Shown here piece after piece: positions 10,960 to 33,501 of a stretch of DNA of 64,000 nt (within the stretch, counting starts at the first letter, position 1; each line of letters opens with the position of its first letter). Made by a program: the position numbers and the translations under genes. The DNA is from a bacterium. Its GTDB lineage: Bacteria > Bacillota > SLNR01 > JBMNPB01. Location of the stretch: contig JBMNPB010000001.1 of the NCBI GenBank assembly GCA_050943375.1, positions 102,278 to 166,277 of the forward strand, written 5' to 3'. Under the pieces are notes generated by a model. It did no database searches, was not told where the DNA came from, and saw only the letters and a list, made by a program, of their open reading frames with translations.

Positions 10960-13620
10960 ATGACTGCGCAAAAAAATTTGCCGACGGTCTATGACCCGAA
11001 GGCGGTCGAGAGCAAGTGGTATGATTATTGGCTGACCGAGAAATATTTTCACGCGGAAGTAGACAAGGACAAAAAACCGTACAGCATTGTCATTCCGCCG
11101 CCGAATGTTACCGGCTCTCTTCATATGGGCCACGCCCTGAACAATACTCTGCAGGACATCCTCATCCGCTGGCACAGGATGCTGGGCGAAAATGTCGTCT
11201 GGATTCCCGGCACGGACCACGCCGGCATCGCAACCCAGGTAGTTGTGGAGAGGGAACTGGCCAAGGAAGGGAAGACCAGGCATGATCTCGGCCGGGAAGC
11301 TTTTATCGAGCGAGTCTGGCAATGGAAGGAGCAATACGGCAACAGAATTATCGAACAGCTGCAGCGGCTGGGGACGTCCTGTGACTGGGACCGGGAAAGG
11401 TTCACTATGGATGAGCGCTGCTCCCGGGCGGTCCGGGAAGTTTTCGTCCATCTATACGAGAAAGGTCTGATTTACCAGGGCGACTTTATCATCAACTGGT
11501 GCCCCCGCTGTCTCACCGCCCTGTCGGATTTGGAGGTGGAGCATAATGAAACCGGCGGTCGTCTCCATTATGTCCGCTATTCCCTGGCAGACAGCGATGA
11601 GTCCATCATGGTGGCGACGACGCGGCCGGAGACAATTCTCGGGGATACCGGCATTGCCGTACACCCGGAAGATGAGCGGTACCGGCATCTGATCGGCCGC
11701 AATGCTCTCCTGCCGCTGCTGAATCGGGAATTGCCGATTATTGCCGACGATTATGTAGACCCGGAGTTCGGGACCGGAGCCGTCAAAGTCACTCCGGCTC
11801 ACGACCCGAACGACTTCGCCATGGGCGAGCGGCACAACTTGCCGAGCGTGGTGGTCATCGACGAGAAAGGCGGCATGAACGAAAATGCCGGTAAATACGC
11901 CGGGATGGATCGTTACGAATGCCGCCAGGCGATTCTGGCGGACCTGAAGACAATGGGATTCCTGGTGAAAGTGGAAGAACACACTCATGCCGTCGGACAT
12001 TGCTCCCGTTGCGATACAGTGGTTGAGCCAATGCTCTCCAAACAATGGTTTGTGAAAATGCAGCCTCTGGCCGAGCCGGCCATGCAGGTCGTCCGGGAAG
12101 GTAAGATCAAATTCGTCCCGGAACGGTTCGCCGATACTTATCTTTATTGGCTGGAGAATATTCACGATTGGTGCATTTCCCGCCAGCTCTGGTGGGGACA
12201 CCGAATCCCGGCGTGGTACTGCCGGGACTGCGGGGAAGTGCTTGTCGCGAAGGAAGATCCGACCCAATGCGGCAAATGCGGCGGCAAAAATCTCGTGCAG
12301 GACCCGGATGTGCTGGATACCTGGTTCAGTTCGGCCCTCTGGCCTTTCTCGACTCTCGGGTGGCCAGACGAAACACCGGAACTGGAGCATTTCTATCCAA
12401 CGTCGGTGCTCGCTACCGGCTACGATATCATCTTCTTCTGGGTTGCCCGGATGATTTTCATGGGCCTCGAGTTCCGGCAGGAAATTCCGTTCCATGAGGT
12501 GTTCATCAATGGACTGATTCGGGACGCGGAAGGGAAGAAAATGAGCAAGTCGCGGGGCAACACCATTGATCCCCTCGGCATTATCGAGCAGTACGGGACG
12601 GACACGCTGCGCTTCACTCTCGTGACCGGCAGTTCGCCCGGCAACGATATTCGCCTGTTCACGGAAAAATTCGAGGGTATCCGTAATTTCGCCAATAAAA
12701 TCTGGAACGCGTCCCGCTTCGTGCTGATGAATCAGGACGATACGGACGCCGGGCTGGCGGTCCCGGCACCGGAACAGCTGACCCTCGCCGACAAATGGAT
12801 TATCGGCCGGTACAACTTCGTCGCCGGTGAAATCACCCGCCTCCTGGCGCGCTATGATTTCAGCGAGGCGAGCAAAACATTATACGACTTCATCTGGAAC
12901 GAATATTGCGACTGGTATATTGAATTGGCCAAGCCGCGGCTCTACGGGAAGGAGAACGCCGCCGACCGGAAAACAGCCCAGGCCGTCCTCCGGTATGTCC
13001 TGAGCAATACCTTGAAGCTGCTACACCCCTTCATGCCCTTCATCACCGAGGAAATTTGGCAGGCCCTGCCGCACGACGGGGAAAGCATCATGGTCAGTCC
13101 CTGGCCGGAGCCGGAAATTGCGTCTGACCCGGCGGCGGAAGCGACGATGGAATTGTGCATGGAAGTCATCAAGTCCATCCGGAGCATTCGCGCCGAGATG
13201 GGTGTCGCTCCCGGTAAGAAAGCGGATGTTATCCTGCAGGCGGCGGAGGCGGGCGTCTACGCTGATCTGGAAGCAGGCTTGGGATACATCGAGCAGCTGG
13301 GCAGCGCGGCCGCTTTGACATTGACCCGGACGCTGGCGGAAAAACCGCGCAATGCGGCGGCTGCCATCACCCGGGGCGTGGAAATCTATCTGCCGCTGAA
13401 AGGTCTGATCGATATCGACAAGGAAATTGGTCGCCTGGAAAGCGAACTTGCGACTGCCCGGGCCGAAATCGGTCGGGCCGCGGGCAAACTCGCCAACACT
13501 GGTTTTCTGGCCAAGGCTCCGGCGGAAGTGGTGGAGAAGGAGAAAGCGAAGCAGGCGGAATATCAGGAGAAGGAAAGCAAGATCAAAGCGAGAATAAGAC
13601 AGCTCAAAGAGATGGCGTAA
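10960..13620 (+). CDS. valS: valyl-tRNA synthetase
   Basis: Class I HIGH (…SLHMGHA…) and KMSKS motifs, CP1 editing domain and C-terminal coiled coil. ATG 10960 with RBS gggagga. The ORF-track start 10921 lies inside the T-box terminator and is rejected. Confidence 0.95.
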
Positions 13621-16808: not shown

Positions 16809-17343
16809 CACCTTTGCCGGGCGGCTGGCTGCTACGGCAAGGCAATGCGTGCGAATAAAGGAAAGGCGAATCTCATCAATATGCATGACAAAACATAGCG
16901 GTAGAAGATAAAGCATAAAAAGAGGATATCCATGTAACTTCCCTGCTTGGTATAATGTAATCTTCCCCGGTGCGAAAACAGTTGAATGCACATCGGCGTT
17001 TCCCGACTTGGCGGCAGGCGTGGCGCCGGAGAAGCGACGGGGAGGGCCAATGTATGTCTCGGTGCGCCCAAAAGGGGGAAGACGCGCTTCCAGTTAACCG
17101 TAGCGCTGCAATATTTACAGACAACGGCCTTGAGAGATCTGTCCAACAAAATTAATTATGCTAATAAAAAATGCTGAAGGAATAGAGGATTTGCTAATTC
17201 ACAGATATCTACTGCAGTCAAATTCCTGCCGGAGTGAAGGTAACAACCGGGCGAAAGGTGGTGACGTTTAGTAAAAGTCGGACTCTTATGTTCTTGCATG
17301 AATCGGGACTGAAAATTGTTGGGACAGAAGGAGGTTATCAAGT

Positions 17344-17835
17344 ATGGCAGAGGTATGCAAATACTGCGGTGACCGGCAAGTAGAGATGTATAAGGCTTTG
17401 GACAAGGTCATCGCGGAATACAAGGGCAAGCCCGGAGCGCTGATTCCGGTATTGCACCAGGCGCAGCAAATCTTCGGCTGCCTGCCTAAGGAAGTTCAGA
17501 TCCATGTGGCTGAAGGCTTGGACGTTCCGCTGGGCGACGTGTACGGAGTAATCACCTTTTACGCCTTCTTCTCTATGAAGCCGAAAGGGAAATACCAGAT
17601 CGGCGTCTGCATGGGTACGGCCTGTTATGTCAAAGGAGCGGTCAAAGTTCTGGAAGCATTGGAACAGCAGCTGGGAATAAGGCAGGACGATACCACGGAA
17701 GACGGCAAATTTTCGCTTGAGGTGCTGCGCTGCATCGGCGCCTGCGGTCTGGCGCCGGCCATCAAAATCAACGATGAAGTCTACGGCCGGATGACGGCGG
17801 GCAAAGTGGCCGAAGTATTGGCGAAATACGCCTGA
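17344..17835 (+). CDS. hydC: NuoE-like [2Fe-2S] subunit of NADH-dependent [FeFe]-hydrogenase (HydC/HndA-type)
   Basis: Thioredoxin-like [2Fe-2S] NuoE family motifs (…GTACYVKGA…RCIGACGLAP…). RBS gaaggagg. First gene of a hydrogenase operon. Confidence 0.9.
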   Translation: MAEVCKYCGDRQVEMYKALDKVIAEYKGKPGALIPVLHQAQQIFGCLPKEVQIHVAEGLDVPLGDVYGVITFYAFFSMKPKGKYQIGVCMGTACYVKGAVKVLEALEQQLGIRQDDTTEDGKFSLEVLRCIGACGLAPAIKINDEVYGRMTAGKVAEVLAKYA

Positions 17836-17850
17836 GGTCGGAGAAAGTCG

Positions 17851-18405
17851 ATGCGCGAACTGTCCCTACATATCATTGATATCCTGGAGAATTCCCGAAC
17901 GGCGGGGGCAACGCGAATTGACTTAGCCATCCGGCTCGATTCGGCGGCCGACCGGCTGACTATCCGGGTCACGGACAACGGCAGGGGCATGGACGCCGAG
18001 ATGGTCCGGCGGGCGACCGACCCGTTTGTGACTACCCGGACGGCGCGGAAGGTCGGTTTGGGGCTGCCGCTCTTAGCGGCGGCGGCAAGCCGCTGCCACG
18101 GCGATCTGTCGATTGTCTCGGAGCCGGGCAAGGGCACAAGCGTGACGGCGTTGTTTCAGCACAGTCACATCGACCGGGCGCCGCTGGGAAATATCATCGA
18201 TACCGTAACCGTATTCATCAGCGGTAATCCCGAAATCGCATTTATTCTTCGTTACAGCGTGGACGGCCGGGAAATGCGGTTGGACACGGCGGAATTGCAG
18301 GCAGAATTAAGCGATGTATCACTGAGCCACCCTTTGGTGGCCGGTTGGATAAAGCAGTACCTGCGGAAGAAATTGATTGAATTACGCGGAGGTGAAGATT
18401 GGTGA
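17851..18405 (+). CDS. GHKL (histidine-kinase-like) ATPase-domain protein embedded in the hydrogenase operon
   Basis: HATPase_c motifs (N-box …IDLAIR…, G-boxes DNGRGM and GLGLPL, GKGTSV). No HisKA or receiver domain. Similar proteins sit between hydC and hydD in Thermoanaerobacter-type hydrogenase clusters. Confidence 0.75.
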   Translation: MRELSLHIIDILENSRTAGATRIDLAIRLDSAADRLTIRVTDNGRGMDAEMVRRATDPFVTTRTARKVGLGLPLLAAAASRCHGDLSIVSEPGKGTSVTALFQHSHIDRAPLGNIIDTVTVFISGNPEIAFILRYSVDGREMRLDTAELQAELSDVSLSHPLVAGWIKQYLRKKLIELRGGEDW

Positions 18406-18764
18406 AGTCGTTGGCGGAATTGGCGGAATTACGAAAGAAGGCGCAAGAAATGACCCGGCTGCGGGAAGGAGACGCGCCGTTGAAAGTAGTGGTCGGTATG
18501 GGCACTTGCGGTATCGCGGCCGGAGCGAGAGATACGATGGCGGCCATTCTGGACGAATTGGCCCAGCATAATAGGGATGATGTAACGGTAACCCAGACGG
18601 GATGCGCTGGGCGGTGCGAGATGGAACCGCTGGTGGAAGTGTGCGAACCGGGCCAGCCCAAAGTCACTTACGGCAAGGTGACTCCAGAGAGAGCCCGCCG
18701 CATAGTCGCCGAGCATATCGGCAGCGGCCGGATAATCGAGGAGTGGGTCGTAGCTAAGCAGTAA
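18399..18764 (+). CDS. hydD: thioredoxin-like [2Fe-2S] ferredoxin subunit (HydD/HndB-type)
   Basis: 121 aa. Cys motifs CGIAAG…C…C typical of NuoE-like/HndB ferredoxins. TTG/GTG start after RBS ggaggtg. Confidence 0.8.
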   Translation: MVKSLAELAELRKKAQEMTRLREGDAPLKVVVGMGTCGIAAGARDTMAAILDELAQHNRDDVTVTQTGCAGRCEMEPLVEVCEPGQPKVTYGKVTPERARRIVAEHIGSGRIIEEWVVAKQ

Positions 18765-18904
18765 AGCATTTTCCCCTGCAAGGGAAAGTTCGGCTTTTCA
18801 CAAGCATCTAACAATCGCTCCGTCTGGCGGATAATACCGGCGGCGGACAAGGCACGAGAACACCGGGTAGTACAGAAAAGCCCGGGCTAAAGGAGGGCAA
18901 TATT

Positions 18905-20698
18905 ATGGACAGGGTTAGGGCGCACGTTTTGGTTTGCGCCGGGGCCGGCTGCATTTCCTCCAACTGCAAGGCGGTGGAGGAGGCCCTGGTCGATGAACTG
19001 GAGAAACAGGGGCTGGCGCAGGAAGTTAAAGTAGTTGAAACCGGCTGCATCGGCACCTGCGAGCTTGGCCCCATCATGGTAATTTACCCGGAAGGGATAT
19101 TTTACTGCAAGCTTAGGCCGGAAGACGCCAGGGAAATTGTCAGCGAGCACCTGCTGAAAGGGCGCCGGGTGGAGCGGCTGATGTACCGGCGGCCGGGCAG
19201 CGATATACCCATCGAAGCTGTCGACAATATCGACTTTTTCCGCAAGCAGGTACGGATTGCCCTGCGGAACACCGGTATCATCAATCCGGAAATCATCGAG
19301 GAATATATTGCCCGGGACGGTTACGCCGCTCTCGGCAAAGTGCTCACGGAGACGACTCCGGCGGAAGTCATTGATATAATGAAGAAGTCGGGCTTGCGGG
19401 GACGCGGCGGCGCCGGTTTCCCGACCGGCCTCAAATGGGAGTTTACGGCGAAAGCGAAAGGAACTCCCAAATACATTGTCTGCAACGCGGACGAAGGCGA
19501 TCCGGGTGCTTTTATGGACCGGAGCATTCTGGAAGGCGACCCGCACAGCATTATTGAAGCGATGGCCATCGCCGCTTATGCGGTGGGGGCAAACCAGGGC
19601 TATGTCTATGTCCGGGCTGAGTATCCCCTGGCAGTGGAAAGATTGAGCCAGGCGATCGGCAAGGCAAGAGAATACGGCCTGCTGGGCAAGAATATCCTTG
19701 GCACGGGATTTGATTTCGACCTGGAAATCCGGATCGGGGCCGGCGCTTTTGTATGCGGCGAAGAAACGGCACTGCTCGCCTCCATCGAAGGCAATCGCGG
19801 CGAACCGCGGCCGAAGCCGCCGTTCCCGGCGAACGAAGGAGTCTGGGGCAAGCCGACTTTGAACAACAATGTGGAGACTTACGCTAATGTTCCGGCGATA
19901 ATTCTCAAAGGCTGGGAATGGTATTCCGGCATCGGAACGGAGAAAAGTAAAGGCACGAAGGTTTTCGCCCTCGCCGGCAAGTGCAACACGGCGGGGCTTG
20001 TGGAAGTGCCGATGGGTACGACGCTACGGGAGATTATTTACGATATTGGCGGCGGTATCCAGGGTGGCAAGAAGTTCAAGGCGGCCCAGATCGGCGGACC
20101 TTCCGGCGCCTGCCTGACGGCCGAGCATTTAGACCTGCCGATGGACTATGAAAATCTGAAGGCGGTAGGTGCCATGGTCGGCTCGGGCGGCCTGATTGTT
20201 ATCGACGAGGACAACTGCATGGTTGACGTGGCGAGATTCTTCCTCGACTTCACCCAGGATGAATCCTGCGGGAAATGCGTGCCTTGCCGGATCGGGACGA
20301 AGCGGATGCTGGAAGTCCTGAACCGGATCTGTGAAGGAAAAGGTGAAGAAGGCGATATCGATAACCTGTATGAGTTGGCCAAAGTCATCAGCGGCTCCGC
20401 CCTTTGCGCGCTCGGTCAGACGGCACCAAACCCGGTGTTGAGTACGATTAAACACTTCCGGGATGAATATGAAGCGCACATTAAAGAGAGGCATTGTCCG
20501 GCGGGTATTTGTAAACCGCTCATCACATACACCATTAATCCCGCTGTCTGCCGTGCCTGCGGACTGTGCGCCAAGGCCTGCCCGGTAGAGGCCATCAGCG
20601 GGAAAGTGAAGGACAGCTTCGCCATTGGCCAGGCGAAATGCATTAAATGCGGCACTTGCCTGGAAAAATGCCCGTTCGGAGCAATTGAGAAAAAATAA
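18905..20698 (+). CDS. hydB: NuoF-like NADH-binding flavo-FeS subunit (HydB/HndC-type)
   Basis: N-terminal thioredoxin-like domain, then a 51-kDa NADH/FMN fold (GLRGRGGAGFPTGLKW) and SLBB domain. [4Fe-4S] NuoF motif (CGKCVPCR) and two C-terminal ferredoxin-type CxxCxxCxxxCP motifs. Confidence 0.9.
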   Translation: MDRVRAHVLVCAGAGCISSNCKAVEEALVDELEKQGLAQEVKVVETGCIGTCELGPIMVIYPEGIFYCKLRPEDAREIVSEHLLKGRRVERLMYRRPGSDIPIEAVDNIDFFRKQVRIALRNTGIINPEIIEEYIARDGYAALGKVLTETTPAEVIDIMKKSGLRGRGGAGFPTGLKWEFTAKAKGTPKYIVCNADEGDPGAFMDRSILEGDPHSIIEAMAIAAYAVGANQGYVYVRAEYPLAVERLSQAIGKAREYGLLGKNILGTGFDFDLEIRIGAGAFVCGEETALLASIEGNRGEPRPKPPFPANEGVWGKPTLNNNVETYANVPAIILKGWEWYSGIGTEKSKGTKVFALAGKCNTAGLVEVPMGTTLREIIYDIGGGIQGGKKFKAAQIGGPSGACLTAEHLDLPMDYENLKAVGAMVGSGGLIVIDEDNCMVDVARFFLDFTQDESCGKCVPCRIGTKRMLEVLNRICEGKGEEGDIDNLYELAKVISGSALCALGQTAPNPVLSTIKHFRDEYEAHIKERHCPAGICKPLITYTINPAVCRACGLCAKACPVEAISGKVKDSFAIGQAKCIKCGTCLEKCPFGAIEKK

Positions 20699-20752
20699 GG
20701 ATGCCGCCAAAGGGCAACGGAAGGCATTCAAAAAGAAGGAGTGTGTAAGGCA

Positions 20753-22480
20753 ATGGTATCGCTGAACATCGACGGGCGGAACGTCAGCGTTGAACCCGGG
20801 ACGACTGTGCTGCACGCGGCAGAAAAAGCCGGGATTCACATTCCGACCCTTTGTTATCTGAAAGACATCAACTGCATCGGCGCCTGCCGGGTTTGCGTAG
20901 TGGAAGTCGAAGGCGCTCGGGCGCTGCAGACCGCCTGCACTTATCCGGTGGCGGAAGGCATGGTCGTGAAGACCAACACCCCGGCAGTGCGGGCGGCGAG
21001 GAAAGCGGTAGTCGAATTAATCTTGTCCGACCACCCCCAAGACTGTCTGACTTGTTTCCGCAATCAGAACTGCGAGCTGCAGAAACTGGCCCAAGATCTC
21101 AATGTCCGGGAAGTCCGTTTCGCCGGCGAACAGACCCATCATCCCATCGATGCCTCCAGCCTGGCAATCGTCCGTGAACCGGACAAATGCATTCTTTGCC
21201 GGCGCTGCATCAGTGTCTGCCAGCAAGTGCAGGGCGTTCACGCCATCGGAATGGCGGAGCGGGGCTTCAAAAGCCTCGTCACCCCGGTTTTCGGGGAGGA
21301 CTTGGCTGACGTCGCCTGCGCCAATTGCGGCCAATGCGTTCTCGCCTGCCCGACCGGCGCTCTGCACGAGAAAGACGATACCGATAAAGTCTGGGCGGCC
21401 TTGACCGATCCGACGAAGCATGTCATCATTCAGACGGCTCCGGCCGTCCGGGTTGCAGTGGGCGAGGAGATGGGAATGGAGCCCGGGAGCCTCGTTACCG
21501 GCAAGATGGTGGCTGCGATCCGGCGGCTTGGCTCTGACAAAGTGTTTGACACCGACTTTACGGCCGATCTGACGATAATGGAAGAAGGGCACGAATTGCT
21601 GCACCGTTTGAACAACGGCGGCAAGCTGCCGATGATCACCTCCTGCAGCCCCGGCTGGATCAAGTATATTGAGCATTTTTACCCGAATCTTCTGGAGCAT
21701 CTCTCGACGTGCAAATCACCGCAGCAGATGTTCGGGGCACTGGCCAAGACGTATTACGCGGAGAAGGAAGGCATCGACCCGAAAGATATTGTCAGCGTTT
21801 CGGTAATGCCCTGCACGGCGAAGAAGTTCGAAGCCAAGCGGCCGGAAATGGATGACAGCGGCTATCAGGATGTGGATATCGCGATTACGACCCGGGAACT
21901 GGGCAGGATGTTCCGGGAAGCTGGGTTAGATTTTGCGAATCTGCCGGAGGAAGAATACGACGCTCCGCTGGGAATCAGCACCGGCGCCGGTGTTATCTTC
22001 GGCGCGACGGGCGGCGTCATGGAAGCGGCCCTGCGCACGGTGTACGAAGTCGTGACCGGCAAGACGCTGGAAAAAGTCGAGTTCACGGCGGTCCGGGGCC
22101 TGGAAGGCATCAAAGAAGCAACGGTTCAGGCTGGTGACATACCGGTGAAGGTGGCGGTAGCGCACGGCCTTGCCAATGCCCGGAAGATAATGGATCTGAT
22201 TCAAGACGGAAAAGCCGATTATCAATTCATCGAAATCATGTGCTGCCCGGGCGGGTGTATTGGTGGCGGCGGCCAGCCAATCCCGACCAATACCAAAATA
22301 CGCGGCAAGCGGGCGATGGCCATCTACACCGCGGATGAACTCTCAGTTATCCGCAAATCCCATGAAAACCCGGCGGTGCAGACATTGTACAAAGAATTCC
22401 TGGAGAAGCCCCTCGGGGAAAAATCCCATCATCTGCTGCACACTCATTACACGAAGCGGCCAAAATACCCGAAGGTTTAG
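20753..22480 (+). CDS. hydA: [FeFe]-hydrogenase catalytic subunit with NuoG-like N-terminal FeS domains and variant H-cluster motifs
   Basis: N-terminal 2Fe-2S and 4Fe-4S domains. H-cluster motifs: L1 ITSCSPGW (21632-21658), L2 MPCTAKKFE and L3 EIMCCPGGCIGGGGQP. ATG 20753 with RBS aaggag. Confidence 0.9.
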   Translation: MVSLNIDGRNVSVEPGTTVLHAAEKAGIHIPTLCYLKDINCIGACRVCVVEVEGARALQTACTYPVAEGMVVKTNTPAVRAARKAVVELILSDHPQDCLTCFRNQNCELQKLAQDLNVREVRFAGEQTHHPIDASSLAIVREPDKCILCRRCISVCQQVQGVHAIGMAERGFKSLVTPVFGEDLADVACANCGQCVLACPTGALHEKDDTDKVWAALTDPTKHVIIQTAPAVRVAVGEEMGMEPGSLVTGKMVAAIRRLGSDKVFDTDFTADLTIMEEGHELLHRLNNGGKLPMITSCSPGWIKYIEHFYPNLLEHLSTCKSPQQMFGALAKTYYAEKEGIDPKDIVSVSVMPCTAKKFEAKRPEMDDSGYQDVDIAITTRELGRMFREAGLDFANLPEEEYDAPLGISTGAGVIFGATGGVMEAALRTVYEVVTGKTLEKVEFTAVRGLEGIKEATVQAGDIPVKVAVAHGLANARKIMDLIQDGKADYQFIEIMCCPGGCIGGGGQPIPTNTKIRGKRAMAIYTADELSVIRKSHENPAVQTLYKEFLEKPLGEKSHHLLHTHYTKRPKYPKV

Positions 22481-25114: not shown

Positions 25115-25158
25115 GCCAGCGTGTGTGCAATTTTTCACAAATTTTGCTCAAATCCATA

Positions 25159-25677
25159 ATGAAGCTGAGGGAGGTGTTTTCATTGGCAAAACGCAAGACG
25201 GTTGTACCGTTTCAGGGCACAGCAGAGCAGGAAGCGAAGCTTCTGGAGATTATCGAGAAGCATAAAGGGGTGCAAGGCGCATTGATGCCGGTCCTGCAGC
25301 AGGCCCAGGATCTTTACGGCTATCTTCCCATCGAGGTCCAGAGAATCATTGCCGATAAGATGGGCTTGCCGCTGTCGGAGGTCTATGGCGTAGCTACGTT
25401 CTACGCACAGTTCACTCTCAATCCGAAAGGCAAGCACCAGATTGCAGTCTGTCTGGGGACTGCTTGCTATGTAAAGGGTTCGGGCGCGGTGATTGAACGT
25501 ATCGGCCAGAAGCTCGGCATCGAACCGGGCGGGATTACCCCGGACGGCTTGTTCTCGCTGGAGGCGACACGTTGCATCGGCGCTTGCGGACTGGCGCCGG
25601 CGATGACCATCGACGGCAAGGTTTACGGCCGCCTGACTCCGGCAGATGTGGATGAAATCATTGATTCATACAAGTAG
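25159..25677 (+). CDS. NuoE-like [2Fe-2S] subunit (paralog of hydC) of the formate dehydrogenase module
   Basis: Same NuoE signature (GTACYVKGS…RCIGACGLAP). Start ambiguous: ATG 25159, or TTG 25183 after gagggagg. Confidence 0.85.
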   Translation: MKLREVFSLAKRKTVVPFQGTAEQEAKLLEIIEKHKGVQGALMPVLQQAQDLYGYLPIEVQRIIADKMGLPLSEVYGVATFYAQFTLNPKGKHQIAVCLGTACYVKGSGAVIERIGQKLGIEPGGITPDGLFSLEATRCIGACGLAPAMTIDGKVYGRLTPADVDEIIDSYK

Positions 25678-25738
25678 GACGAGTCTTGGCTTTAACGACT
25701 CGCAGCAATTGTGAAAAATCATAAGGAGGTGTATTCCT

Positions 25739-27598
25739 ATGAAATCCCTGGCGGAACTTGCCGAATACCGGGAAAAAGTGAAGGCTGAATGCAATTTGCG
25801 TCAAGACAAATCGGACGACACGCGGGTGTTGGTCGGTTATGCGACATGCGGAATTGCAGCCGGCGCTACCCCGGTGCTGGACGCCTTTATCGAAGAAGTT
25901 GGCAAACGTCGACTCCCGAAAGTGATGGTGACCCAGACCGGCTGTATCGGTATCTGTAAGCTCGAACCAGTGGTGGAAATCCTCGAGCCCGGCAAAGAAA
26001 AAGTGACCTATGTGGAATTGACTCCGGATAAGGTGGAAAAAATCGTCACAGAGCATCTGCAAAACGGCCGGGTGGTCGATGAATACACGATCGGCGCCCA
26101 TGAGGAAGGCATCCAGAGTCTGAACGACAGCAAGTTTTACAAGAAGCAGCGACGCGTGGCGCTGCGGAACTCCGGAATCATCAATCCAGAGTCAATCGAC
26201 GAATACATCGCCCGTGACGGTTATGAAGCGCTCGGGCGCGTGCTGACCAGCATGCAACCGGAAGACGTCATCGCTACCATCAAGAATTCCGGCCTGCGTG
26301 GCCGTGGCGGTGCCGGCTTCCCGACCGGCCTGAAGTGGCAGTTCGCTGCGGCCAGCCCCGGACCGGTGAAATATGTCTGCTGCAACGCCGACGAAGGCGA
26401 CCCCGGCGCGTTCATGGACAGATCGGTGCTGGAAGGCGATCCCCACGCTTTGCTGGAGGCGATGACTATCGCCGGTTACGCCATAGGTGCGCATCAAGGA
26501 TATATCTATGTCCGGGCTGAGTATCCGACCGCAATCAAGCGCCTGCAGATCGCTATCGACCAAGCGCATAAATACGGTTTCCTGGGCAAAAACATCTTTA
26601 ACACCGGTTTCGATTTTGATCTGGAACTGAGGCTTGGCTCGGGTGCGTTCGTGTGCGGCGAGGAGACGGCGCTGATGATCTCCATCGAAGGTAAGCGCGG
26701 TGAGCCCAGACCCCGGCCGCCTTTCCCGGCAGTCAAAGGTCTGTTTGACAAGCCCACTATTCTGAACAACGTTGAGACTTACGCTAATATCCCGCGCATT
26801 ATTCTGAACGGCGCCGACTGGTTCTCCGCCGTCGGAACCGAAAAATCGAAAGGCACCAAAGTGTTCTGCCTGGTCGGCAAAATCAACAACACCGGCTTGG
26901 TGGAAATCCCGATGGGTACAACTTTGCGGGAGGTAATCGAGGAAATCGGCGGCGGCATCCAGGGCGGCAAGAAATTTAAGGCAGCGCAGACCGGCGGTCC
27001 CTCGGGCGGCTGCATCCCCGCATCCTTAATCGATACACCCATCGATTACGATAACCTCGTCGCCATCGGCGCGATGATGGGCTCGGGCGGTCTCATCGTT
27101 ATGGATGAGGACACATGCATGGTGGACATCGCTAAGTTCTTCCTGGAATTCACGGCCGAGGAGTCCTGCGGTAAGTGCACACCCTGCCGCATCGGAACGA
27201 AACGTCTGCTGGAAATGCTCGAGAAGATCACCCGTGGCGAAGGCACACTGGAACTGCTTGACGACATGGAAGAGCTGTGTAACGGCATCAAAAACAACAG
27301 CCTTTGCGCCCTCGGTCAGACAGCCCCGAACCCGGTTCTGTCAACGCTGCGCTATTTCCGGGATGAATATGTTGCCCATGTGGTCGACAAAAAATGCCCG
27401 GCTGGTGTTTGTAGGGATCTGCTGTCCTATGAGATTGACGCCGACAAGTGCATCGGCTGCACGGCTTGTGCCAGAGCCTGCCCGGCGGGTGCCATCTCCG
27501 GCAAGGTTAAGGAAAAGCATGTTATCGATAAGGCCAAGTGCATCAAGTGCGGCGCTTGCCTCGAAGCTTGTAAGTTCGGCGCCGTCGCCAAGAAATAA
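25739..27598 (+). CDS. NuoF-like NAD(H)-binding flavo-FeS subunit with fused N-terminal thioredoxin-like ferredoxin domain (paralog of hydB)
   Basis: GLRGRGGAGFPTGLKW, CGKCTPCR and C-terminal 2x[4Fe-4S] motifs. Collinear with 18905-20698. Confidence 0.9.
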   Translation: MKSLAELAEYREKVKAECNLRQDKSDDTRVLVGYATCGIAAGATPVLDAFIEEVGKRRLPKVMVTQTGCIGICKLEPVVEILEPGKEKVTYVELTPDKVEKIVTEHLQNGRVVDEYTIGAHEEGIQSLNDSKFYKKQRRVALRNSGIINPESIDEYIARDGYEALGRVLTSMQPEDVIATIKNSGLRGRGGAGFPTGLKWQFAAASPGPVKYVCCNADEGDPGAFMDRSVLEGDPHALLEAMTIAGYAIGAHQGYIYVRAEYPTAIKRLQIAIDQAHKYGFLGKNIFNTGFDFDLELRLGSGAFVCGEETALMISIEGKRGEPRPRPPFPAVKGLFDKPTILNNVETYANIPRIILNGADWFSAVGTEKSKGTKVFCLVGKINNTGLVEIPMGTTLREVIEEIGGGIQGGKKFKAAQTGGPSGGCIPASLIDTPIDYDNLVAIGAMMGSGGLIVMDEDTCMVDIAKFFLEFTAEESCGKCTPCRIGTKRLLEMLEKITRGEGTLELLDDMEELCNGIKNNSLCALGQTAPNPVLSTLRYFRDEYVAHVVDKKCPAGVCRDLLSYEIDADKCIGCTACARACPAGAISGKVKEKHVIDKAKCIKCGACLEACKFGAVAKK

Positions 27599-27785
27599 GC
27601 GATATTCTTGTCTGCATCCCGTTTAAGGCGGGATCCGGCTGCGGCCGTCCTGGCGCCGCCGGCAATGAAGCCAGCGGTTTTTGTCTCGTCAGAGAAAGAA
27701 GGCGGACGGCTGACCGGGGTGCAGGTGTCGCTTCATCATCACACAACAAGGATTCACTTCAGTGAATTCACGAGGAGGGATAACC

Positions 27786-30461
27786 TTGATAAACGTCACC
27801 ATCGACGGCATTCCGGTACAGGTGGAAGAAGGCGCAACCATTCTCGATGCCGCCGAAAAGGCCGGAATTCATATTCCCACCCTCTGTCATTTAAAGGGGG
27901 TCACCGGCGAAGGCTCCTGCCGGATGTGTTTGGTCGAGGTCGAAGGTGTGCGCGGTATGCCAGCCGCCTGCTCCTTCCCGGTGGCTGAGGGCAATGTGGT
28001 TCACACCGACACCCCCAAAGTCATCGAAAGCCGCAAGTTCGTCCTGAACCTGCTGCTCTCGAACCACAGAACGGATTGCTTCTCCTGTGCCAAAAACGGC
28101 GATTGCAAGCTGCAGGAGTACTGCTATGAATATGGAATCGAGATGTCGAAATACGAAGGCGAAAAAACCGAAGCTCCCATTGACGACAGCAACGAGTTCT
28201 TCACTTACGATCCTTCCCAATGCATCATGTGCCGTCGTTGCGTAAACACTTGCCACAAGCTGCACGGCGTCGGCGCCATCTCCGTTGTCGACCGGGGTTT
28301 TTCGGCGGCAATCCGCGCCCCCTTCGACGAACTGCTGAAAAGCAGCGACTGCGTCTCCTGCGGCAATTGCGTCTCCAACTGCCCGGTCGGCGCCCTGGCT
28401 CCCAAATCGAAGCATCGTTTCCGTACTTGGGAAGTCAAACACGTTCCGACCACCTGCAGTTACTGCGGCGTCGGCTGCCAATTGGATCTGCTGGTCAAGG
28501 GTAATAAAGTGGTCGGCGTACAACCGCTTGACGGTCCCGCCAACCACGGACTGCTTTGCGTCAAAGGCAAATTCGGGTATGAGTTTATCGACCATCCCGA
28601 CCGCCTGAAGAAGCCGCTGATTCGCAAGGACGGCGAATTGGTGGAAACGAGCTGGGATGAGGCGCTTGACTATGTGGCCGACAAACTGAAGGCGATCAAG
28701 GCCGAAAGTGGCCCCGACGCCATCGCCGGCTTGACCAGCGCCCGCTGCACCAACGAAGAGAACTATGCTTTTATGAAGATGATGCGCGCAGCCGTCGGCA
28801 CTAACAATGTCGATCACTGCGCCCGCCTCTGACACTCCCCAACGGTGGCCGGTCTGGCCGCCACACTGGGGTCCGGTGCTATGACTAACTCTATCGCGGA
28901 AGTAGCTGACGCTGATCTGGTCTTTGTGACCGGTTCCAATACCACTGAAACGCATCCGGTTATCGGTTCGCTGATCCGGCAGGCCAAACGTAAGGGCGGC
29001 AAGCTCATTGTGGCTGAACCGAGGAAGATTCCGCTCTGCCGCGAGGCTGATTTGTTCCTGCAGATCAAACCGGGTACCAACGTCGCGCTGCTCAACGGGA
29101 TGATGAACGTCATCATTGCCGAAGGACTGCAGGACCAGGCATACATTGATGCCCGCACCGAAGGCTACGAGGAGCTGAAAGCGGTTGTCGCCGACTACAC
29201 TCCCGATAAAGTGGCCGAAATCTGCGGTATCGAAGCGGAAGACCTGAAGACCGCGGCCCGGATGTATGCCGAGGCCGGTGTAGCCGGTATCTTTTATGCC
29301 ATGGGTGTGACCCAGCATACAACCGGTACGGAAGGGGTCATGAGTACTGCCAACCTGGCGCTGCTGTGCGGCAATATCGGCAAATACGCCGGCGGTGTTA
29401 ACCCGCTGCGCGGACAGAACAACGTCCAGGGCGCCTGCGATATGGGCGGGCTGCCCGGTGATTTCTCCGGCTATCAGAAAGTAGCGAACCCGGCCGTTAT
29501 CGAGAAATTCGAGAAGGCCTGGGGTGTGAAGCTGTCCAATAAGCCCGGCTACACCGTCATGGAAATGATGGACGCTATCGACAAAGGCGAGGTTCGCGCT
29601 ATGTATATCATGGGTGAGAATCCCATGATTTCCGACCCCGATATCCAGCACGTCGAACACGCGCTTAAAAAATGCGAGCTCCTCGTGGTTCAGGATATCT
29701 TCCTGACCGAAACGGCTGCTCTCGCCGACGTTGTTCTCCCGGCCGCTGCTTTCGCTGAGAAGGATGGTACCTTTACTAACACCGAGCGGCGCGTGCAGCT
29801 GGTCAACAAGGCGGTGGAAGCACCCGGCGAGGCGAGAACCGACTTGGATATCATTAACGATATGACAGCGCGCCTCGGATACAAAAACAACTTCGCGACT
29901 CCGGCCGAAGTGCTGGCGGAAATCGCCGCGGTGACGCCTTCCTACGGAGGGATGTCGGTGGAGCGGCTCAAGGACGGAGGGCTGCAGTGGCCCTGCCCCG
30001 ACAAGGACCATCCCGGCACTCCTATCCTGCATGCTAAGAAGTTCTCCCGCGGCGAGCGCGCGATCTTCAAGCCGGCGAAGTACCGTTCCGGAGCGGAACA
30101 GCCCGATGCTGAATATCCTTATATCTTCACGACGGGCCGGATCCTTTATCAGTATCACACCCGCACTATGTCGGGCAAGGTCGACGGTCTTAACGCCATC
30201 GCGGGCAACTCCTATGTGGAGATTAACCCGACCGATGCCGCGAAATACGGCATTAAGCAGGGCGACGCCGTCACGGTCAGCTCCCGGCGGGGCAGCGTGA
30301 CCGTCCCGGCTCAGGTCACGGAGGCGGTCGCCGAAGGGATTATCTTCATGCCCTTCCATTTCGCCGACGGTCCGGCCAATCTGCTGACTAACGCTGTATA
30401 TGATCCTATCGCCAAGATCCCGGAATACAAGGTCTGCGCAGTCAAGATCCGAAAAGGATAA
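27786..30461 (+). CDS. fdhA: selenocysteine-containing formate dehydrogenase alpha subunit (NuoG-like N-terminus plus molybdopterin domain); in-frame UGA at 28830-28832
   Basis: The ORF-track ORFs 27762-28832 and 28845-30461 are in the same frame. The junction reads …VDHCARL-U-HSPTVAGLAA…, the canonical Sec context of Fdh-type enzymes. A SECIS-like hairpin follows. TTG 27786 after RBS gaggaggg. Confidence 0.85.
28837..28871 (+). promoter_or_regulatory. bacterial SECIS-like hairpin 5 nt downstream of the in-frame UGA
   Basis: Lower stem cccc/gggg, internal loop, upper stem gtggc(c)gg/ccgccac with a bulged C and apical loop UCUGG. Confidence 0.55.
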
Positions 30462-30522
30462 AACGATGCTTCCGGTTTGCGCCGGCTCATACCGGCGCAA
30501 ACCGGCCCCGGGAGGGAGTCCA

Positions 30523-31137
30523 ATGAAAATGTTCGGAACAGCGGCCATTCTGGCCGGCGGCAAATCATCGCGAATGGGTTTTGACAAGCAGTTGCTCACG
30601 CTTGACGGGAAACGGTTTCATGTTCAAATCATCGAACAGCTACGGCAATTGTTTGGCGATGTTCTGCTGGTGACGAACAAGCCGGAGTTTTACCGGGAAT
30701 TGCCAGTACGGGTCTGCTCCGACGTTTTTCCCGGAAGGGGTCCGCTCGGCGGCATTCACGCGGCGCTGTTCAATGCCCAAAGCCGTTATGTCTATGTGCT
30801 GGCCTGTGATATGCCGTGTGTTTGCCCCGGTTATATCCATTACCAGATGAAACTGCTTCGGCGCAACCCCTCCGGCGCCTGTGTCACCCGGAAGGAGGAC
30901 TGGCTGGAGCCTTTCAATGCCTTTTACAGTACCGACACTCTCCCGATTTTGTCCCGCCATCTGCAGGAAGGGAAAAGCTCGCTTTATTTCTTTCTGAAGG
31001 AAATCAACGCTGCTATTCTGGCGGAAGAGACAGCCCGCCGCTTTGATCCGGAGATGAATATGTTCCTCAATCTGAACACTCCGGCGGAGTATGAGGCCTT
31101 TATCAAAAGGAGAGGGCGATATGAAGCTTGCGGTTGA
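30523..31137 (+). CDS. mobA: molybdenum cofactor guanylyltransferase
   Basis: N-terminal nucleotide-binding motif AILAGGKSSRMG. ~205 aa. ATG 30523 with RBS gggaggga. Confidence 0.8.
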   Translation: MKMFGTAAILAGGKSSRMGFDKQLLTLDGKRFHVQIIEQLRQLFGDVLLVTNKPEFYRELPVRVCSDVFPGRGPLGGIHAALFNAQSRYVYVLACDMPCVCPGYIHYQMKLLRRNPSGACVTRKEDWLEPFNAFYSTDTLPILSRHLQEGKSSLYFFLKEINAAILAEETARRFDPEMNMFLNLNTPAEYEAFIKRRGRYEACG

Positions 31138-31900
31138 TGCGCCGATTTTGCGCTATGAAGATGGGCAAACCAGGTTGCTCGACGATCCCGTCGTTGTCGA
31201 ATACCGACTGGCTGTCTGGCTGAACGGAGCGCCTTGGGTCAATCTCCTGTGCTCACCGCAGGATCTGGATGTACTGGTGCTGGGTTATCTGTACGGCGAA
31301 GGCATTATCAAGACGCCGGACGATATCCTGTCGATTGCCCTCGCGCCGGAAGACGGCATCGCCCGGGTAACGGTCCGGGGTGTGCCGGAGATGCCGGCCC
31401 AGGCCGGTCCGATCACGGCCCCCCGCGGCGCCGGGCGGCAGCACGCAATGGGCGGCGCCGGCCCGGGCCGCCCGGCTGAGCCTCTTTCGGGCAGTCTAAA
31501 CTTTGCCGGTGGTGCGCTGCTTAGGAATCTGCGGCAGTTCTACGCCGACTCGGGCTTGCACCGATTGACGGCAGGGGTGCACCGTGCCGCTCTCTGTGAC
31601 GACAACGGCATCCTTCTGACCGCCATTGATATCAGCCGGCATAATGCTTTCGACAAGGTGCTCGGCATGGCCTTGCGGCAAAACATCCCGCTGGAATGCC
31701 ACTATCTGATCACCAGCGGCCGTGTTCCCAGCGACATGGTCAACAAAGCGATTACCGCCCGTTTGCCTATGCTGGTATCCCGGGCGGCGCCTACAGATTG
31801 GGCAATCAGACTCGCCCGGGAAGCGAACATGACGCTGCTGGGATTCTCCCGTGAGAATCGCTTCAACATTTATACCGGAGCACACCGGGTTAATATGTAG
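31121..31900 (+). CDS. fdhD: FdhD-family formate dehydrogenase accessory sulfurtransferase homolog (cysteine loop not evident)
   Basis: FdhD-like N- and C-terminal blocks (…LTAGVHRAAL…DISRHNAFDKVLG…VSRAAPTDWAIRLAREANMTLLGFSR…). ATG 31121 with RBS aggaga. Overlaps the mobA end. Confidence 0.8.
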   Translation: MKLAVDAPILRYEDGQTRLLDDPVVVEYRLAVWLNGAPWVNLLCSPQDLDVLVLGYLYGEGIIKTPDDILSIALAPEDGIARVTVRGVPEMPAQAGPITAPRGAGRQHAMGGAGPGRPAEPLSGSLNFAGGALLRNLRQFYADSGLHRLTAGVHRAALCDDNGILLTAIDISRHNAFDKVLGMALRQNIPLECHYLITSGRVPSDMVNKAITARLPMLVSRAAPTDWAIRLAREANMTLLGFSRENRFNIYTGAHRVNM

Positions 31901-32517: not shown

Positions 32518-33501
32518 ATGTTTATTCCCGTAATTGGATTTTTAACGTTGTTTGCGATGACATGTACATTGGTTGGTTTAGGCCTGACGGAAACATTTAA
32601 TCAACCCGGTTTCGGCAGTACTGCCGTTATTGTTGCGGTGCTGGCGGCGCTGCTGTATGGAGCCAGGCTGGAATGGGCCCTGAGTCTGACCAAAGAGAAA
32701 ACCCAGAATGCCAAGATCGGCGGAAACGATTTGGCGAATTTTGTCGCCGTGGTTATTGGAGCGATTATCGCCTATTTTATCAATGTTACTTTGGGACTGG
32801 GCGGGGTGGTGGCCGTCGGATTGGTGGGTGTAACCACCAACCTGGTTGCCCCGAAACACGATGTCCCGGTCTACTGTGGCGGTATTATGGGCATGGCCAG
32901 CGGGGCATTGCTGCCGACCTATGCGTATGTACTGCTGGCGGCAATAATTGCCGGGATTGTGTTTGTGATTAGTAAATTCACCTTTAACGGTTTTGGGGGC
33001 AAGCTGGGCACTACCGCTATTACCGGCTGTGTGCTTACGGCCTTGATTACCGGCCAGCCGTTCGGCAGCTCTCCCGTCCCGGCCGGGGATGTGATTCTGC
33101 TCTATGTTATCTATTGTGCTATGGGAGCGGTTCTGAGCTTTGGTGTGAAGGAGTATTTTAAGCACAACGCAGTAATGAGTTCAGCGCTGATCGCGCTTCT
33201 TGCCGGGCTGTTGCTGCCGGCTCTCAATCCGCAAATGGGCGGAGCGCTCGCAGTTGTGGCATCCGTCGGCGCTTTTGCCGGCATGAGCGCGCCGGCCCGG
33301 ATTCCCAACCTGGCGTATATGTTCGTGGCCGGAATAATCGGCGGTGTGATTTACTCTTACACTTCCCCATATTTGGGCGGCGCCGGCGGAAAATTGGGAA
33401 CTACCGCTTTTAGTTCGGTTGTAGCCCTGAATGCAATGATTAGCCTGGCCAAGAATTTCAGCGGAAAGAGCCAGGTGCAGCAGGCAAAGACGCCGCACTG
33501 A
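32518..33501 (+). CDS. polytopic membrane protein with internal tandem duplication (unknown family; possible YedE/YeeE-like transporter)
   Basis: 327 aa, ~10 TM. Two homologous halves, each ending in G(F/A)GGKLGTTA(I/F). RBS gaggggagg. Confidence 0.7.
   Translation: MFIPVIGFLTLFAMTCTLVGLGLTETFNQPGFGSTAVIVAVLAALLYGARLEWALSLTKEKTQNAKIGGNDLANFVAVVIGAIIAYFINVTLGLGGVVAVGLVGVTTNLVAPKHDVPVYCGGIMGMASGALLPTYAYVLLAAIIAGIVFVISKFTFNGFGGKLGTTAITGCVLTALITGQPFGSSPVPAGDVILLYVIYCAMGAVLSFGVKEYFKHNAVMSSALIALLAGLLLPALNPQMGGALAVVASVGAFAGMSAPARIPNLAYMFVAGIIGGVIYSYTSPYLGGAGGKLGTTAFSSVVALNAMISLAKNFSGKSQVQQAKTPH

Follow-up and report, generated by a model that had tools for sequence, protein, structure and literature searches.

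In the window, the 64-kb stretch of bacterial DNA that we analyzed here, the genes for a formate dehydrogenase (FDH) are located on the forward strand in the order NuoE-like subunit, NuoF-like subunit, FDH alpha subunit, mobA and fdhD, flanked by an [FeFe]-hydrogenase cluster upstream and by an rnf operon downstream. The NuoE-like (25123-25677; PF01257) and NuoF-like (25739-27598; PF01512 and PF10589) genes encode electron-transfer subunits. The FDH alpha subunit (27762-30461) contains N-terminal 2Fe-2S/4Fe-4S domains and Mo/W-bisPGD domains, as identified with Pfam. Its reading frame includes a TGA codon at 28830-28832 (HCARL*HSPTVAGL), which probably encodes selenocysteine (Sec). The position of this in-frame codon within HCARL-U-HSPTVAGL indicates a Sec enzyme, and an orthologous alpha subunit at locus L004 is split at the same point. 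The mobA gene for a molybdenum cofactor guanylyltransferase (30523-31137) is recognized by PF12804 (E 5e-35) and by the MobA models of NCBIfam, and the same gene call is made in loci L001, L002 and L086. It is the only gene between FDH alpha and fdhD (31121-31900), which lie 660 nt apart, and its 3' end overlaps the start of fdhD by 17 nt. The order FDH alpha, mobA, fdhD is found again beside the homologues P0002 and P0003 (loci L004 and L005), and a MobA-FdhD fusion protein (P0031, locus L087) is encoded immediately after an FDH alpha gene. As judged from this gene arrangement, mobA and fdhD are linked by translational coupling within an FDH alpha/mobA/fdhD operon that is conserved. By its ValS, the organism is closest to Negativicutes (Sporomusaceae; 64-66% identity), which points to an uncultured Bacillota lineage.

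The fdhD gene codes for a protein of 259 amino acids, which we assign to the FdhD/FdsC family of formate dehydrogenase accessory proteins. PF02634 (FdhD-NarQ) matches it in one stretch over model positions 1-236 of 237 (E 1.5e-62; 211.9 bits, with a cut-off of 27.2), and the FdhD equivalog model TIGR00129 is likewise above its cut-off (171.5 versus 140.9 bits). The score with NF001943, which describes the PRK00724 subtype, is 170.5 bits and below the cut-off of 269, and the protein is thus placed outside this subtype. With 66 homologues as input, AlphaFold2 gave a model with a mean pLDDT of 90.8 and a pTM of 0.89. When compared to the PDB with Foldseek, this model finds 4PDE and 2PW9 with E values of ~1e-22 and TM scores of 0.79-0.92, while the next matches have E values above 0.01. 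The strong matches of the predicted structure are hence the two solved FdhD proteins only. The window protein retains every residue that does not vary across sets of 30 and 66 homologues, among them H154, D170, R173, H174, D178 and G182. We place the start codon at the ATG at 31121. It is preceded by the Shine-Dalgarno-like sequence AAAGGAGAGGG (31106-31116), which we read from the sequence 4 nt before the ATG and within the 3' end of mobA, and the N termini of homologues begin at the same residue. Of the two possible starts, the one at 31121 is better supported and more likely than an ATG further upstream, at 31091. Both the family assignment and this start codon had been proposed in the first-pass annotation of the DNA, and they are borne out by the family models, the predicted fold, the putative ribosome binding site and the homologues.

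FdhD sulfurtransferases of the E. coli type carry a CXXC, a CC or a single cysteine in a disordered loop, which receives persulfide from IscS. The window FdhD has none of these arrangements and thereby lacks the one trait by which the E. coli-type mechanism is defined. At the place of the canonical loop, between the last strand of the N-terminal domain and the first helix of the C-terminal domain, we found a segment rich in Gly, Pro, Ala and Arg (residues 86-127, 42 residues; 31376-31501, forward strand), which reads RGVPEMPAQAGPITAPRGAGRQHAMGGAGPGRPAEPLSGSLN and contains no cysteine. The three cysteines of the protein, C44, C159 and C193, are all located outside the loop. When the protein is aligned to 2PW9 (with the loop TSGCGGTGK) and to relatives of the canonical type (ITSGCGRG), Arg102 occupies the column of the catalytic cysteine (SGCG). 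The first-pass annotation had described the loop as devoid of cysteine, with cysteines elsewhere in the protein only, and had asked whether an alignment with the FdhD family would uncover one that it had overlooked; its description holds, and the alignment uncovers none. The codon for Arg102 (CGC, 31424-31426) would be converted to TGC by a single transition, and it is the same in all five assemblies compared below. It is placed at the 3' end of a C6 homopolymer at 31419-31424, a run that had been noticed before but positioned 2 nt too far downstream, at 31421-31426. The run has the same length in loci L001, L002 and L003, and the fdhD gene of L086 has no nucleotide difference from that of the window.

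The loop is predicted to be an unstructured coil: in the AlphaFold2 model, mean pLDDT values for consecutive 10-residue blocks across residues 91-120 are 58, 46 and 52, with values under 50 for residues 101-115. The DNA encoding it is extremely GC-rich, as had also been pointed out before. The GC content of 31393-31482 is 86.7%, the highest value for any 90 nt in the 64-kb window (mean 55.3%, SD 7.5%, z = 4.2), and the corresponding loops of relatives reach only 64-71%. We considered an RNA element or a repeat in this stretch and rejected both, as folding revealed no excess of RNA structure (z = -0.10) and Tandem Repeats Finder reported no tandem repeats, the stretch containing just short GC-rich direct and inverted repeats.

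A conceptual problem with a missing cysteine in such a sequence is that the GC-rich or homopolymeric stretch could contain an indel or two, introduced during sequencing or assembly, that mask a normal cysteine loop. This explanation had been put forward in the first-pass annotation, and it draws on the high GC content of the stretch (84-87%) with its C6 run and on the +1 frame, which indeed reads CRRCRPRP (VCRRCRPRP with one further residue), as had been stated. We compared five assemblies, the window and those from the runs SRR31065934, ERR10905743, SRR31066179 and ERR3486052. The FdhD protein from SRR31066179 is identical to that of the window, and SRR31065934 and ERR10905743 each differ from it by 1 nt within fdhD. 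Over 181 nt around the loop, C6 run included, these three agree with the window base for base. The strain represented by ERR3486052 is more diverged (2.3% at the nucleotide level, with a 96%-identical protein), yet loop and frame are preserved, and in the same 181 nt we found six substitutions, no indel and an intact C6 run. Five independent assemblies are therefore either the same over the loop or different by substitutions only.

The reading frames argue in the same direction. The sequences on either side of the loop share a reading frame, so that two compensating indels would be required to hide a cysteine between them. Stop codons flank the +1 frame both upstream and downstream, and the +2 frame runs into one downstream; a three-frame translation of the loop revealed no G-C-G-type (SGCG) motif in either alternative frame. 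The annotated frame, in contrast, retains a relative-like G-R-Q-H, to be compared with G-K-Q-H in P0003, P0126 and P0127; the matching segments of the latter two read TACGKQHS or TGCGKQHS. In addition, the relatives at 51-58% identity are Cys-less as well. From these sequence comparisons, the frameshift reading is effectively refuted by the three identical loops, the diverged strain without indels, the stopped frames and the Cys-less relatives, and we give it practically no chance of being correct.

We next turn to these relatives. The closest homologues, P0002 (58% identity) and P0003 (51%; alignment A2), both are without a loop cysteine, and the P0003 loop (IQSGNGKQHG) has an asparagine at the cysteine position. 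The SGCG motif is missing from P0002 through P0050 in the hit list, whose loops are mostly ~25 residues shorter, and the first canonical loop is found in P0051, at 41% identity (BLASTP). The Cys-less loop is thus kept in relatives, a point on which the first-pass annotation had sought confirmation. In a neighbor-joining tree of 243 FdhD domains, calculated with the loop masked, the window FdhD pairs with P0002 and belongs to a clade of 57-71 sequences, just 4-5 of which fit even a loose cysteine pattern. It is hence a family member whose loss of the loop cysteine is common to its relatives, as in the FdhD subgroup without loop cysteine. Fitch parsimony on the 243-domain tree yields ~49 changes of the loop-cysteine state; this is a rough figure, and it indicates that the character is very labile. 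An exhaustive search returned 7,511 matches at E <= 0.001, and we classified the best 150 representatives of clusters formed at 50% identity: 66 have a canonical xGCGx loop, 50 have no loop cysteine, and the remaining 34 have another type. Among the GTDB matches listed that come from named genomes (29-41% identity, the close clade not being among them), Bacilli carry a CC motif, and loops without cysteine occur in Dehalococcoidales, Syntrophomonadaceae, Oscillospiraceae, a deltaproteobacterial MAG and Izemoplasmatales. These sequence comparisons together indicate that Cys-less FdhD loops are common and polyphyletic and that the loop varies fast among relatives.

We compared the window protein to FdhD proteins that have been characterized before. 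E. coli FdhD (4PDE) acts as an IscS-dependent sulfurtransferase and as a bis-MGD chaperone for FdhF, FdnG and FdoG. The two proteins share the Pfam and TIGRFAM family, the fold (TM 0.81-0.86 for the window model), a long loop at the same position that is disordered in E. coli FdhD and predicted to be so in the window FdhD, the D-x-x-R-H-x-x-x-D-K and S-x-R motifs, and an association with formate dehydrogenase. They differ in that their sequences are only ~25% identical, that the E. coli loop contains CGVC (C121 and C124) whereas the window loop has no cysteine and aligns Arg102 instead, and that the window gene is coupled to mobA and appears to serve a cytoplasmic Sec-FDH with NuoE/F-like subunits. 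The best match in the PDB is the FdhD-like protein 2PW9 from Desulfotalea psychrophila (sequence E 3.5e-21; TM up to 0.92), the loop of which, unlike that of the window FdhD, has a single cysteine (TSGCGGTGK). FdsC from Rhodobacter capsulatus is, like the window protein, an FdhD-family chaperone for a cytoplasmic FDH with NuoE/F-like subunits, and it binds bis-MGD. It retains a CXXC motif, however, its FDH uses cysteine rather than Sec, and its host is an aerobic/facultative proteobacterium.

The window FdhD is most similar in its loop to a set of proteins that is already on record. 'Group III' FdhDs without loop cysteines were described in 2018 by Schwanhold et al. (PMC6239281), and a review from 2023 (PMC10609526) names the FdhD of Methanococcus maripaludis as a Cys-less example. 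These proteins from Clostridia, Bacilli, archaea and others have one or no loop cysteine, and they have been proposed to retain the binding and insertion of the cofactor, with sulfuration following another route; the window FdhD agrees with this description. The window loop is of canonical length (49 versus ~50 residues between the flanking elements), unusually rich in Gly, Pro and Ala, and has an arginine at the cysteine site, whereas in most of its own clade ~25 loop residues are deleted. Both the Cys-less FdhD phenomenon and its proposed explanation have been published, and the window FdhD is no new class. The lineage-specific traits (a full-length loop free of cysteine, arginine at the cysteine site, and the local GC content) are minor, and they give no hint of a new mechanism.

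The window protein is probably a true FdhD/FdsC family member that is functional, belongs to a sizeable lineage that has lost the loop cysteine, has Arg102 at the cysteine site and serves the Sec-containing, NuoE/F-linked FDH encoded upstream. A different account would be that a canonical FdhD from another locus of the genome is the true sulfurtransferase, and that the copy in the window is redundant and losing its function. Our data cover 64 kb of a 178-kb contig and of a larger genome, even the additional cysteine found at position 156 in most members of its clade is missing from the protein, and dN/dS between the window gene and that of the diverged strain (18 substitutions in all) is 0.74 in the loop. 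Yet dN/dS is ~0.33-0.35 in the folded parts, the ORF is intact, every invariant residue is retained, and the structure is modeled with confidence. The gene moreover overlaps with mobA, to which it is coupled, the two being part of a conserved FDH operon, and the loss of the loop cysteine is common to the whole clade and has been maintained over many lineages. We searched the six-frame ORFs of the entire 64 kb with an HMM and found no second fdhD in the window. Decay of a redundant copy is, in light of these findings, improbable.

The overlap of the two genes raises the question of whether MobA supplies the missing function, with the Cys-less FdhD working only in complex with its neighbor, a dependence that the first-pass annotation had offered as one way out. 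In line with this, all MobA-FdhD fusions that we found (430-450 amino acids) fall into the Cys-loop-less clade; our literature search on such fusions returned nothing relevant. MobA, however, is a guanylyltransferase, and we know of no sulfur-transfer role for it. As a signature of Cys-less FdhDs, mobA adjacency turned out to be unspecific and was rejected: among the genome loci examined, mobA also adjoins fdhD genes of the canonical, Cys-containing type (8 of 35), while seven of eight unrelated Cys-less fdhD genes are without mobA nearby, the eighth being a fusion. Channelling of the bis-MGD substrate would by itself account for the coupling, which agrees with the order of the pathway, in which MobA makes bis-MGD and FdhD receives it. 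A requirement for MobA as a compensating partner is thus unsupported, and we judge it highly improbable.

Alternatively, the sulfur relay may have been relocated, with a cysteine of the folded domain carrying the persulfide. Candidates are C159 in the sequence HRAALC, C44, or the H[RC]CALC site of the clade, in which most members have their extra cysteine three residues from the position of C159. C44 and C159 are near-invariant in the window protein's part of the family, but they are about equally common in canonical FdhDs with a cysteine loop and hence do not qualify as compensatory. Cys156 is enriched in proteins without loop cysteine, where it is found in 74 of 134 sequences compared with 29 of 109 of the others (odds ratio 3.4, Fisher p = 8e-6); this test ignores phylogeny, and the association comes mostly from one clade. 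The window FdhD itself has Ala156. Relocation of the thiol therefore seems doubtful to us for this protein. We also envisage, as a similarly doubtful and slightly more speculative extension, that the loop-deleted, Cys-loop-less clade, together with the window FdhD and all MobA-FdhD fusions, represents a distinct maturation module. In such a module, bis-MGD would be channelled directly from MobA to FdhD, and the sulfur-carrying thiol would have moved from the loop to the CxxC-like H[RC]CALC site, which is located next to the invariant histidine. Within this scheme, the window FdhD, with its HRAALC sequence and a Cys-free loop of full length, would represent an intermediate or a doubly reduced form, wholly dependent on C159 or on free sulfide.

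Coming back to the reading that we prefer, the window FdhD is most likely mainly a bis-MGD chaperone, whose contribution to sulfuration would not involve a loop cysteine. MobA would make the Mo/W-bis-MGD cofactor, which the nucleotide-binding face of FdhD may then bind and hold while the terminal sulfido ligand is installed, before FdhD delivers it to the apo-FDH. Sulfur would bypass a loop persulfide and go straight to the bound cofactor. It could originate from the persulfide of a cysteine desulfurase or from free sulfide in a cytoplasm that is reducing and strictly anaerobic; among the part of the window ORFs scanned with Pfam, none is a cysteine desulfurase. The loop, rich in Gly, Pro and Ala and encoded by GC-rich DNA, would be a non-catalytic linker under relaxed constraint.

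We infer sulfuration independent of the loop from three reports (PMC6239281, PMC10609526 and PMC12140954). The loop cysteines of R. capsulatus FdsC are dispensable, as loop-Cys variants still give active FDH, and in the same study, from one laboratory, loop-Cys variants of E. coli FdhD also give active FDH (PMC6239281). The review already mentioned notes that some FdhDs are without loop cysteines and speculates that sulfuration follows another route, with FdhD inserting the cofactor (PMC10609526). An FDH devoid of the sulfido ligand can be activated chemically by sulfide and a reductant, a chaperone not being needed (PMC12140954). On the other hand, earlier work, as far as it is cited in PMC6239281, found that C121 and C124 variants of E. 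coli FdhD result in inactive FdhF. The dispensability of the loop cysteines is thus contested in at least one system. The suggestion in the first-pass annotation that the protein is a Cys-less cofactor chaperone agrees with the proposal made in PMC10609526, and our analysis supports it as far as a sequence can.

The route by which the sulfido ligand reaches the Mo/W center of FDHs is still debated, and laboratories are split over the need for the FdhD loop cysteines. Natural Cys-less FdhDs in active FDH operons favor the notion that the loop thiol has an accessory part and is not at the heart of the mechanism, a question that bears on the heterologous production of CO2-reducing FDHs from anaerobes. 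The locus adds a further example, a Sec-FDH operon with a Cys-less FdhD from an uncultured Bacillota lineage. As Cys-less FdhDs are published and frequent, the case is correct but ordinary, and it opens no new question. The most interesting by-products of our analysis are located outside the window protein: the MobA-FdhD fusions and the possibly compensatory Cys156 of the loop-deleted clade.

The cysteine-less FdhD of the window belongs with a clade of relatives that lack a cysteine-bearing loop, most of them carrying a loop shortened by about 25 residues, and this loop-deleted clade contains all of the MobA-FdhD fusions that we found. In these single-chain proteins of 430-450 aa, a MobA domain (PF12804) is joined to FdhD (PF02634), and they are common among the relatives P0012-P0059 in our list of homologues. 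One fusion locus was examined (L087), and here the formate dehydrogenase (FDH) alpha gene lies directly 5' of the fusion P0031 (L087:8001-9338). NCBIfam holds no dedicated model for the MobA-FdhD fusion, and a literature search returned no description of it.

We compared cysteine positions in an alignment of 243 FdhD domains. Many contain an extra cysteine two residues past the invariant histidine (H[RC]CALC), forming a CxxC-like pair with the cysteine that corresponds to Cys-159 in the window's protein. This residue is more common in domains without a loop cysteine (74/134 versus 29/109; odds ratio 3.4, p = 8e-6 in a Fisher test, which ignores phylogeny), with one clade accounting for most of the enrichment. 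The window's FdhD has an alanine at this position, its motif reading HRAALC (residues 154-159; 31580-31597).

The DNA encoding the loop (31393-31482) is 86.7% GC, compared with a window mean of 55.3%, and is the highest 90-nt value in the 64 kb. Because the same loop reaches only 64-71% GC in the closest relatives, this extreme composition is specific to the window's lineage. We found no tandem repeat and no excess of RNA structure in the segment, and its content of Gly, Pro, Ala and Arg codons is the only account we have for it.

The FDH alpha gene (27762-30461) contains an in-frame TGA (28830-28832) within the conserved active-site motif HCARL-U-HSPTVAGL, and on this ground it almost certainly encodes a selenocysteine enzyme. 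In L004, the locus of a relative with the same gene order, the ortholog is split at the same point; the FDH adjoining the fusion in L087 is an uninterrupted 892-aa protein. No protein family supports the 902-aa open frame antisense to the alpha gene (27891-30599, minus strand), for which the best reading is a shadow ORF arising from the GC-rich coding strand.

Between fdhD and rnfC lies a gene for a hydrophobic, Gly/Ala-rich and apparently membrane-bound 327-aa protein (32518-33501) with no Pfam match. In L004 and L005, both loci of relatives, the slot 3' of fdhD is held by a FocA-type formate/nitrite transporter, and the 327-aa protein might be an unrelated transporter in its place. The window further encodes two paralogous NuoE-like/NuoF-like pairs, one accompanying an [FeFe]-hydrogenase (17302-22480; hydrogenase, 20741-22480) and one the FDH (25123-27598), with small HATPase and DRTGG proteins between them. 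This layout resembles modules for electron-bifurcating hydrogenases and FDHs in anaerobic Bacillota. ValS (10960-13614) is only 64-66% identical to its closest named relatives, the Negativicutes Acetonema, Sporolituus, Dendrosporobacter and Lucifera, so that the source of the window is a poorly classified Bacillota lineage.
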